A stretch of DNA of 64,000 nucleotides from positions 121,129 to 185,128 of the forward strand of contig CAZNEE010000002.1 of assembly GCA_964572255.1 (NCBI GenBank), read 5' to 3'. The DNA comes from an uncultured Planctomycetia bacterium (GTDB lineage: Bacteria; Omnitrophota; Gorgyraeia; Tantalellales; Tantalellaceae). The notes under the pieces were generated by a model. That model saw only the letters and a list, made by a program, of their open reading frames with translations, was not told where the DNA came from and did not search any database. Below, piece by piece: positions 18,999 to 20,264 of the stretch. Every line of letters starts with the position of its first letter. The stretch's first letter is position 1. Both the position numbers and the translations under genes were made by a program.

Positions 18999-19095
18999 GG
19001 GGACGCCCCATCAGGGGACACCCTGCATAGTTAATACGACTTAAAACTTTTATACTCATTCAATCTTGCGGGGTGTCCCCTGATGGGGCGTCCCC
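18999..19095. repeat. 26-bp perfect inverted repeat (GGGGACGCCCCATCAGGGGACACCC / GGGTGTCCCCTGATGGGGCGTCCCC) with a 46-nt AT-rich loop
   Basis: Read directly from the sequence. The right arm encodes the C-terminal GTPHQGTP of the radical SAM gene; the left arm is intergenic. Confidence 0.7.
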
Positions 19096-20264
19096 CATAT
19101 CCCGGCAATGCTGCCTGAACAAAAACCGCATTTGCCATCTTTAGAAACATGATTTTCCAGGACCTGGTATCCCATTCTTCTTATAACAACTTTTTTACAC
19201 TTCGGACAGATCGTATCTTCATACCCCATCCCGGGAACATTGCCGATATAAACATAATGAAGCCCCTCTTCAAGGGCGATGTCCCTCGCCTTCTTCAGCG
19301 TCTCAACAGGGGTGGGATAAAGAGATCTTAATTTGTATTGCGGCCAGAAGCGCGAAAAATGCAAGGGGACATCAGAGCCGACATTGGATCTTATCCATTT
19401 GACCATCTGCCTGATCTTGCTCATATCATCATTAAGAGTCGGAACTATTAAATTTGTCAGCTCGATCCACATACCGCCTTGTTTCATGGTGAGTATACTG
19501 TCTAAAATATTATTAAGACTCTGGGCGCATACTTCCCGCAAATATTTATCGTCGAAGCCTTTAAAGTCGATATTCGCAGACTCCACATATTTAGCAGCAA
19601 GTTTCGCGGGTTCTTTATTTATTTTTCCGCCTGTTACCATTACATTATATATACCTTTTGTTTTTGCGAGTTTCGCCCCCTCGATCATATACTCATAAAA
19701 GATAACAGGCTCAGTATAAGTATAAGCAATGGACCTGCATCCGTTCATTGCTGCGCTATCGACAAGATTTTTCACGCTTAAACGATTATTGATAGTCTCT
19801 TCAGGCGAGCGCTGCGATATTGTCCAGTTCTGGCAATATTTGCAGCGGGAATTACAGCCGGCAGTAGCTATGGAAAAAGACTTGCTGGCCGGGAGCACAT
19901 GATACATGGGCTTTTTCTCGATAGGATCAATATGCGCTGAGCAAACAAGTTCATATACAAGAGAGTATAACTTTCCGTCGACAGGTTCCCGAACGCGGCA
20001 AAACCCTCTCTGCCCGTTCGAAAGCGTACAATAATTGGGACACAGAACGCATCTTACCGCTTCATCCCCCATCTTTTCATAAAAAAGGGCTTCATGCATT
20101 CCGCGTTTTTCACCGATAGCGGATAAAGCCTGATATTTTGAAAGAGCGCCAAATGCGTAGAGCGATGCCCCTATACATACACCGGCTTTCGCGCATTTAG
20201 CCAAAAACTCGCGTCGGGTAACTTTCTTATGCCAGATGTTCTCAAGATGTTCAAATACTTTCAT
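19056..20264 (-). CDS. amrS: AmmeMemoRadiSam system radical SAM enzyme with twin-arginine (Tat) signal peptide
   Basis: CPNYCTLSNGQRGFCRVR and GCNSRCKYCQNW motifs typical of the AmrS family. N-terminus TRREFLAKCAKAGVCIGASLYAFGALS is a Tat-type signal. Confidence 0.8.
   Translation of the reverse strand: MKVFEHLENIWHKKVTRREFLAKCAKAGVCIGASLYAFGALSKYQALSAIGEKRGMHEALFYEKMGDEAVRCVLCPNYCTLSNGQRGFCRVREPVDGKLYSLVYELVCSAHIDPIEKKPMYHVLPASKSFSIATAGCNSRCKYCQNWTISQRSPEETINNRLSVKNLVDSAAMNGCRSIAYTYTEPVIFYEYMIEGAKLAKTKGIYNVMVTGGKINKEPAKLAAKYVESANIDFKGFDDKYLREVCAQSLNNILDSILTMKQGGMWIELTNLIVPTLNDDMSKIRQMVKWIRSNVGSDVPLHFSRFWPQYKLRSLYPTPVETLKKARDIALEEGLHYVYIGNVPGMGYEDTICPKCKKVVIRRMGYQVLENHVSKDGKCGFCSGSIAGIWGTPHQGTPRKIE

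Follow-up and report, generated by a model that had tools for sequence, protein, structure and literature searches.

A predicted Tat signal peptide on an AmmeMemoRadiSam radical SAM enzyme from an uncultured Omnitrophota bacterium points to a probable extracytoplasmic system

Because they require both S-adenosylmethionine (SAM) and a low-potential reductant, radical SAM enzymes are regarded as strictly confined to the cytoplasm. AmrS, the radical SAM component of the AmmeMemoRadiSam system, is in its canonical cytoplasmic form (family profile TIGR04337) a protein of about 335 aa that co-occurs with Memo and AMMECR1, proteins that have human homologues, MEMO1 and AMMECR1. The stretch of DNA analyzed here (referred to in its full length of 64 kb as the window; contig CAZNEE010000002.1, positions 121,129 to 185,128, from an uncultured bacterium of the phylum Omnitrophota) contains an amrS gene whose product resembles canonical AmrS in its match to the family profile, its CX3CX2C motif, its N- and C-terminal cysteine motifs and the presence of Memo and AMMECR1. 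It differs from the canonical form in having a predicted twin-arginine translocation (Tat) signal of 48-55 aa, partners that are fused to each other and targeted to the general secretory (Sec) pathway, and a linked membrane protein related to the spermidine synthase SpeE, and it belongs to a few clades that stand apart from the forms without an extension. While the family is known, its compartment, the targeting of its partners and its third component are not described in the literature covered. We consider it likely that the product of this amrS serves as the radical SAM enzyme in an extracytoplasmic AmmeMemoRadiSam system, and the whole system is probably located outside the cytoplasm, here and in many other anaerobic bacteria.

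For the N-terminus of AmrS the closest described parallels are the Tat-exported iron-sulfur (Fe-S) proteins, such as hydrogenase small subunits, ferredoxins of the NrfC/NapG/DmsB type and Rieske proteins. Like these, AmrS is an Fe-S protein that combines a motif of the S/T-R-R-x-F-L-K kind with a weak h-region and a basic c-region, and from general knowledge of such proteins the assembly of cofactors before export would apply to it as well. Unlike these electron-transfer subunits of respiratory enzymes, AmrS is a radical SAM enzyme that needs diffusible SAM. Radical SAM maturases of exported proteins, among them the anaerobic sulfatase-maturating enzymes (anSMEs), have products that reach the periplasm, but the anSMEs themselves are signal-less and work on their substrate in the cytoplasm, ahead of its export; in the present case, by contrast, it is the radical SAM enzyme that bears the predicted export signal. 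Memo, AMMECR1 and the radical SAM component are treated by comparative genomics chiefly in Burroughs et al. (JBC, 2019). No exported or Tat-dependent radical SAM enzyme and no exported AmmeMemoRadiSam system were found in the open-access full text covered, to which Burroughs et al. 2019, a paper that may already describe secreted forms, does not belong; an exported system of this kind is mentioned in none of Tooke 2017, Meheust 2021 and Seymour 2023.

The amrS gene occupies positions 19056..20264 of the minus strand, stop codon included, and encodes a 402-aa precursor from an ATG start. An earlier note on this DNA had proposed a Tat-targeted AmrS at this site and had quoted its N-terminus, MKVFEHLENIWHKKVTRREFLAKCAKAGVCIGASLYAFGALSKYQALSAIGEKRGMHEALFYEK; coordinates and N-terminus are both correct, with the addition of the minus strand, which the note did not state. 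The identity of the protein as AmrS is borne out by TIGR04337 (AmmeMemoSam_rS), whose match to residues 61-392 reaches 352.3 bits (cutoff 220). Pfam Radical_SAM (PF04055) covers residues 133-289 (E = 1.4e-16), and the quoted core motifs were found as C72-x2-C75-x3-C79...GFC89RVR and G136-C-NSR-C-KY-C144-QNW. Conservation was assessed in alignments A1 and A3, one of which reaches down to 35% identity while the other comprises 42 orthologues. The radical SAM cluster motif C137-x3-C141-x2-C144 (19833..19856, minus strand) is invariant in both. The N-terminal cysteines C72, C75, C79 and C89 (19998..20051, minus strand), presumed to form an auxiliary metal or Fe-S site, are invariant or nearly so, and at the C-terminal cysteine pairs C353-x2-C356 ... 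C379-x2-C382 (19119..19208, minus strand), also a presumed metal site, C353, C379 and C382 are invariant in the two alignments, and C356 shows no variation in A1 and is retained in at least 90% of the A3 sequences. A PDB sequence search with AmrS gave no match. The nearest database proteins carry the name Candidatus Omnitrophota AmrS, and databases annotate such proteins simply as AmrS.

Since the TIGR04337 match begins at residue 61, the approximately 55 N-terminal residues of AmrS represent an extension beyond the family profile. A Shine-Dalgarno sequence, AGGAGG (20272..20277, minus strand), can be read from the sequence 7 nt upstream of the amrS ATG, which in turn lies 28 nt from the stop codon of feoB. 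The identical 402-aa gene call is found on four public contigs, and about 105 of the 120 best AmrS homologues are full-length proteins with an N-terminal extension. The internal methionine M56 is without a usable, suitably spaced Shine-Dalgarno sequence and the extension is conserved at the protein level, so the start codon on which the signal depends is well supported.

Residues 1-48 (20121..20264, minus strand) constitute a predicted Tat signal peptide, with predicted cleavage after A46-L-S48, as judged from TIGR01409, conservation among homologues and an AlphaFold model. The n-region is long and basic, with a net charge of about +5. The twin-arginine motif, T16-R-R-E-F-L-A-K23 (20196..20219, minus strand), is conserved in A1 and A3; the earlier note had described it as S/T-R-R-x-F-L-K, of which TRREFL is present, but the lysine is displaced by one position downstream of the consensus. 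The h-region, A27-S42 (20139..20186, minus strand), consists of 16 uncharged, weakly hydrophobic residues (mean Kyte-Doolittle 1.54) and is followed by K43 and then A46-L-S48|A49, a site that reads AYA|AIGEKRG in orthologues. The NCBIfam model TIGR01409 (TAT_signal_seq) matches residues 15-35 with 18.8 bits against a curated cutoff of 16.7 (E 0.0016). Motif, h-region, cleavage-type site, model score and conservation in orthologues thus lend in silico support to the Tat signal that had been claimed. AmrS is the sole Tat-like protein in the window by a pattern scan of all possible starts in open reading frames (ORFs) of at least 90 aa in six frames.

A comparison of N-termini among the 120 closest AmrS homologues, which the earlier note had recommended, gave, at the motif position, 67 with RR, 30 with RK, four with KK and four without such a pair, and a motif consensus of [TS]-R-[RK]-[DEQ]-F-[LI]. 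In both A1 and A3 there is no substitution at R17 or F20, and R18 is kept in at least 90% of the sequences. Sec signals are more hydrophobic than Tat signals, an established difference, and the most hydrophobic 12-mer has a median of 1.68 in AmrS versus 2.93 in the Sec signals of the Memo-AMMECR1 fusion (AmrBA) from the same phylum (Mann-Whitney p = 1e-33). In the AlphaFold model of AmrS (predicted local distance difference test score, pLDDT, 87.3) residues 17-45 form a detached helix, the linker 43-48 has pLDDT < 50 and a confident core follows; the low-confidence linker coincides with the predicted cleavage region.

The partner proteins are encoded in the same window, about 22 kb from amrS, as an amrB-amrA fusion (42729..44207, minus strand). 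Its 492-aa product matches Pfam Memo and AMMECR1 and scores 233.7 bits with TIGR04336 and 180.5 bits with TIGR04335. Although the genes of the system are not adjacent here, they are adjacent in many related loci. From the translation, AmrBA begins with a predicted Sec signal peptide, MLKRFVLVIFITVFSFSCSQA|SEKK (44145..44207, minus strand), and in 113 of the 120 best AmrBA homologues a hydrophobic signal at the N-terminus precedes the conserved ADLAGSWY.

The generality of these targeting signals was examined in 80 amrS loci obtained from a scan of species-representative genomes, with N-termini classified by script. Among 81 AmrS copies, 50 were Tat-type, about 12 had a Sec-like hydrophobic signal and 14 had no extension. 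Tat-type AmrS occurs in about ten phyla, including Omnitrophota, Bacteroidota, Thermodesulfobacteriota together with other deltaproteobacterial groups, and Ignavibacteriota, and also in Fibrobacterota, Planctomycetota, Calditrichota, Poribacteria, WOR-3 and others. The best 150 AmrS representatives at 50% identity fall into three forms: an extension-less one of about 335 aa, one of 375-396 aa that carries SRRxFL-type signals, and fusions. In a neighbor-joining tree of AmrS the Tat-type proteins cluster (9 Fitch steps versus 25 in shuffles), and the nearest neighbor of a Tat-type AmrS is never an extension-less form.

The targeting of Memo follows that of AmrS. Wherever an export-type AmrS has a complete Memo gene nearby (30 of 30 loci), Memo, usually fused to AMMECR1, carries a signal peptide or a lipobox. 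Three pairs, those of L045 and L072 and the second one of L081, combine an extension-less AmrS with a neighboring signal-less Memo; L018 and L044 are ambiguous. This match gives a Fisher p of 0.0002 to 0.0015, which is indicative only since the loci are related. Both types of system lie side by side in a Bacteroidales genome (L081, 3808-10987), where one consists of an extension-less AmrS with a signal-less Memo and the other of a lipoprotein-type Memo-AMMECR1, a SpeE-like membrane protein and a Tat-type AmrS with a KR motif.

Directly downstream of amrS in the window is a gene (16713..18989, minus strand) for a 758-aa, 14-helix membrane protein with a match to Pfam Spermine_synth, which belongs to the 'fused MFS/spermidine synthase' family (NF037959, 72 bits against a cutoff of 40, the sole NCBIfam subfamily whose cutoff it reaches). 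Its AlphaFold model (pLDDT 87.7) has 7+7 helices flanking a soluble domain of approximately residues 240-540, placed between transmembrane helices TM7 and TM8, and Foldseek identifies this domain as a complete SpeE fold (1uir, 3o4f and 1inl; target TM-scores 0.72-0.77). In 28 homologues the K+R content of successive loops is 2.1, 0.2, 2.5, 1.0, 2.9, 0.0, 1.8, [domain], 2.0, 0.0, 3.3, 0.8, 2.6 and 0.0, an alternating pattern that puts the SpeE-like domain on the low-charge side, predicted to be outside the cytoplasm. Thus the protein resembles SpeE and NF037959 in its full SpeE fold and in mostly keeping the acidic residues that bind ribose and adenine, but differs from SpeE in the setting of the domain, which sits between two 7-helix bundles with a predicted location in the periplasm.

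A role of this neighbor as a true spermidine synthase was considered and rejected. The SpeE equivalog models fall short of their cutoffs (NF002956, 170.7 bits versus 472; TIGR00417, 88.8 versus 249.6). Its loop reads GGGVGG and lacks the Asp of GGGDG that selects decarboxylated SAM, and its second motif is H-L-G-D-P (family consensus N-L-P-[DE]-P) as against D-S-T-D-P, so that the first catalytic Asp is absent as well. Because of these missing residues and failed cutoffs the protein was not filed as a spermidine synthase. A SpeE-like gene was found beside export-type amrS in 36 of 61 loci, as against 2 of 12 for extension-less amrS; of these two, one proved to be a Tat form placed in the wrong class, and the second is ambiguous. 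By class, the gene lies within 10 kb, and usually adjacent, in 31 of the 50 Tat-type and 5 of the 11 anchor-type loci, and in at least 25 Omnitrophota clusters it shares a contig with amrS, many of these contigs being just 3-16 kb long. As a separate point on gene boundaries, public calls of the window's SpeE-like gene (739 aa) begin 19 codons after the TTG start adopted in this analysis, the difference being 18933-18989 on the minus strand. The longer form is the one over which homologues of 750-770 aa align; with the shorter one the first transmembrane helix would be cut short.

A possible source of electrons is indicated by fusions in other organisms. Modules of the FMN_bind, NapH-like and DsbD_2 types, as in the flavinylated conduits related to NosR and NapH, feed extracytosolic redox enzymes (Meheust et al. 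2021, PMC8238504), a paper that does not mention Memo, AMMECR1 or AmrS as a partner. Among the nearest AmrS relatives at 50% identity are proteins with AmrS fused behind a transmembrane helix, FMN_bind and NapH-like Fer4_5 (P0242, P0249). Fusions with DsbD_2 were found with this module alone (P0245) or together with FMN_bind and NapH-like Fer4_5 (P0262), and other fusions have FMN_bind alone (P0250), a signal with a beta-propeller (P0244) or a signal with CBM_11 (P0247). By helix counting, the AmrS domain of the polytopic fusions is placed outside the cytoplasm. AmrS of the window is likened to such conduits through these relatives but differs in being unfused, and modules of this kind are not encoded in the window.

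These data suggest the following model for an extracytoplasmic system. The AmrS precursor would fold and acquire its Fe-S clusters in the cytoplasm, as is general for Fe-S proteins; the Tat translocase would then recognize T-R-R-E-F-L-A-K and export AmrS in its folded state, probably with cleavage after A-L-S48. In the periplasm AmrS may meet the Memo-AMMECR1 fusion, exported through Sec according to its predicted signal, and the 14-helix neighbor, whose SpeE-fold domain, of a type that binds adenosyl ligands, is predicted to face the same compartment. AmrS, AmrBA and the membrane protein might act jointly on a substrate in the cell envelope. More speculatively, the neighbor, with its resemblance to the major facilitator superfamily (MFS) and to SpeE, might supply or handle an adenosyl co-substrate, whether SAM, a derivative or the products, and electrons might come from membrane conduits, which are proposed because of the fusions of AmrS relatives to FMN_bind, NapH-like and DsbD_2 modules. 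In its fullest form, in which anaerobic diderms run a complete periplasmic radical SAM system of Tat-exported AmrS, Sec-exported Memo-AMMECR1, a 14-helix protein that delivers or recycles SAM and quinol-linked or flavinylated electron conduits, the proposal is a tentative one. That same joint and tentative reading would have as carriers Omnitrophota, Bacteroidota (including gut Bacteroidales), Thermodesulfobacteriota, Ignavibacteriota, Fibrobacterota and Planctomycetota.

Export signals across a multi-phylum clade, with partners that are co-targeted independently, challenge the view that radical SAM chemistry is confined to the cytoplasm, or else imply novel routes for supplying SAM and electrons outside the cell. 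If true, no earlier case of radical SAM chemistry outside the cytoplasm would precede this one, and it would place a substrate of Memo/AMMECR1 proteins in the envelope. The AmmeMemoRadiSam system would gain a cellular address, with the membrane SpeE-like protein as a previously unlinked third component. Some carriers can be cultured, for example in the Bacteroidales, Ignavibacteriota and Desulfobacterales, and in these the hypotheses are open to direct test.

Several observations weigh against an extracytoplasmic AmrS. The first concerns the chemistry: radical SAM enzymes need both SAM and a low-potential reductant, and neither is known to occur in the periplasm. The signal and topology assignments are predictions from rule-based scripts rather than experiment. 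The signal itself is in part atypical. Pfam PF10518 (TAT_signal) has no match on the AmrS N-terminus and gives weak, sub-threshold matches in just two homologues, and with TIGR01409 the homologues reach 12-15 bits, just under the cutoff. A third of the close Omnitrophota orthologues have RK and a few have RG or RH, which is unusually relaxed for Tat, and in Bacteroidota, Ignavibacteriota and Syntrophaceae the AmrS motif is nearly always of the KR form, [SNDK]-K-R-[ETQ]-F-[LIV]-K, which TIGR01409 does not recognize (loci L011, L025, L032, L034-L036, L039, L049, L052-L055, L061, L066, L069, L074, L077 and L081). The comparison with cytoplasmic systems has just three control loci with an adjacent Memo gene, and the loci are phylogenetically non-independent.

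As for the secretion machinery, tatA and tatC were not found in the 64-kb window by Pfam on ORFs of at least 120 aa, a scan for the TatA motif or tblastn with E. coli TatA and TatC. In favor of export, tblastn with the same queries against the other loci places tatA-tatC directly beside a convergent pair of amrS and SpeE-like genes in two of them. One of these (L007, 13476-13971) is from an Omnitrophota genome with an AmrS 53% identical to that of the window, which indicates that the phylum has Tat; the other (L024, 11173-12151) is in a bin labeled Aenigmatarchaeota that is possibly mis-binned, as the locus looks bacterial. In Omnitrophota, Elusimicrobia and others some AmrS proteins have a Sec-like signal that is strongly hydrophobic and lacks a twin arginine, with ALA|D or SLA|E sites, and are encoded beside a signal-bearing Memo-AMMECR1 (L009, L010, L015, L016, L019, L020, L033, L042, L057 and L060; in L009, L010, L015, L033, L042, L057 and L060 the gene is at about 10001, with a full 10-kb upstream flank). 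Such proteins, and the polytopic fusions without RR, are hard to square with the export of folded Fe-S proteins; dual Sec/Tat insertion of the polytopic fusions was considered and rejected, as there is no internal twin arginine ahead of the last helix. Export of an Fe-S radical SAM enzyme by Sec would contradict the rule by which Fe-S proteins depend on Tat. In two Thermodesulfobacteriota/Syntrophobacterales loci (L017, 575-1141; L027, 228-752) a separate AMMECR1 gene directly upstream of a Tat-type amrS encodes a signal-less protein, which is either a candidate for co-export as a hitchhiker or a counter-example to export of the full system. Together, the problem of SAM and electrons, the motif variants, the Sec-like AmrS proteins and the signal-less AMMECR1 keep alive two of the alternatives considered below, namely a tether on the cytoplasmic face and chemistry that precedes export.

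One alternative keeps Tat export and changes the fate of the signal. AmrS would be Tat-exported with its signal uncleaved, as a Tat-inserted anchor of the kind known from Rieske proteins, and would stay on the outer face of the inner membrane beside its 14-helix partner. The single long helix 17-45 in the AlphaFold model could span the membrane, in relatives the AmrS core directly follows a true transmembrane anchor or polytopic modules, and the conserved partner is itself a membrane protein. However, members of the Omnitrophota clade keep a site of the AxA type (AYA|A, ALS|A) behind the h-region, as do many other Tat-type proteins, and an h-region of 15-19 uncharged residues is short and weakly hydrophobic. 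We therefore regard a retained anchor as unlikely.

That AmrS might not be exported at all we also judge improbable. The N-terminus would then be a vestigial or re-purposed Tat-like leader, as in NarG, that serves for chaperone binding or as a tether to the cytoplasmic face, and the enzyme would use cytoplasmic SAM with flavodoxin or ferredoxin. This accords with the established location of SAM and low-potential reductants in the cytoplasm, and it could account for the frequency of RK, KR, RG and RH variants, the lack of a Pfam TAT_signal match, the signal-less AMMECR1 beside Tat-type AmrS in L017 and L027, and the lack of tat genes found in the window. It is opposed by the Sec signal or lipobox on Memo-AMMECR1 in all 30 leader-bearing AmrS loci, the predicted outside location of the SpeE-like domain, the adjacency of tatAC in two loci and the TIGR01409 score above cutoff. 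The charge of the n-region, moreover, favors an N-in, C-out orientation, and the leader has full n-, h- and c-regions with a cleavage site, unlike the remnant in NarG.

A third alternative, to which we give little credence, separates catalysis from location. The radical step would occur in the cytoplasm, with AmrS itself, a bound cofactor or a hitchhiker such as a signal-less AmrA as its target, and AmrS would then be exported by Tat loaded with its product, so that no SAM would be needed outside. The Tat pathway is known to carry folded, cofactor-loaded proteins and complexes, the AMMECR1 genes of L017 and L027 would supply the hitchhiker, and the paradox of SAM and reductant would be removed. 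In most lineages, however, AmrA is fused to Memo behind a Sec signal and would be exported unfolded, which makes co-export with AmrS impossible, and the outward-facing domain with its adenosyl-binding fold and the electron-transfer fusions suggest catalysis outside. The possibility that translation starts at M56 (MHEALFYEK...), exactly where canonical AmrS proteins of about 335 aa begin with M[KRH]EA.FY, leaving the 'signal' untranslated, is rejected as very improbable, given the well-placed AGGAGG upstream and none usable before M56, the short distance from feoB, the same call on public contigs, and protein-level conservation of the extension down to 35-40% identity and across phyla with R17 and F20 invariant.

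Returning to the locus of the extracytoplasmic system, nearly all genes in the window are on the minus strand. The region just upstream of amrS (20293-22635, minus strand) holds feoB, feoA and a gene for an ArsR-type regulator, and since the 28-nt gap between feoB and amrS contains no terminator-like site the genes are probably co-transcribed. feoAB was rejected as a general functional partner of amrS because, outside the window, feoB was seen next to amrS only in L005, the closest relative; upstream of amrS in L007 there are instead a NikR-like and a glutaredoxin-like gene. A 29-nt inverted repeat (18999..19095, minus strand; arms 18999-19027 and 19067-19095) forms a hairpin across the amrS stop codon. 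Its arms are 97% complementary, the repeat occurs once in the window and the RNA fold has an energy of -73.7 kcal/mol (z = -9.4). One arm encodes an additional 12-aa C-terminal tail of AmrS, GTPHQGTPRKIE, which is absent from homologues and has pLDDT < 50, and the hairpin resembles either a palindromic element that was inserted or a strong stem between the cistrons of amrS and the next gene.

Directly downstream of the SpeE-like gene is a giant ORF of 3767 aa (5316-16619, minus strand) whose recognizable content is limited to pentapeptide repeats near residues 430-500; the same layout is found in public contigs of the same species. A 142-aa ORF (26274-26702, minus strand), unrelated to the AmrS finding, encodes an RVT_3/RNase H-like domain and adjoins a gene for a CT398-like zinc-ribbon protein.

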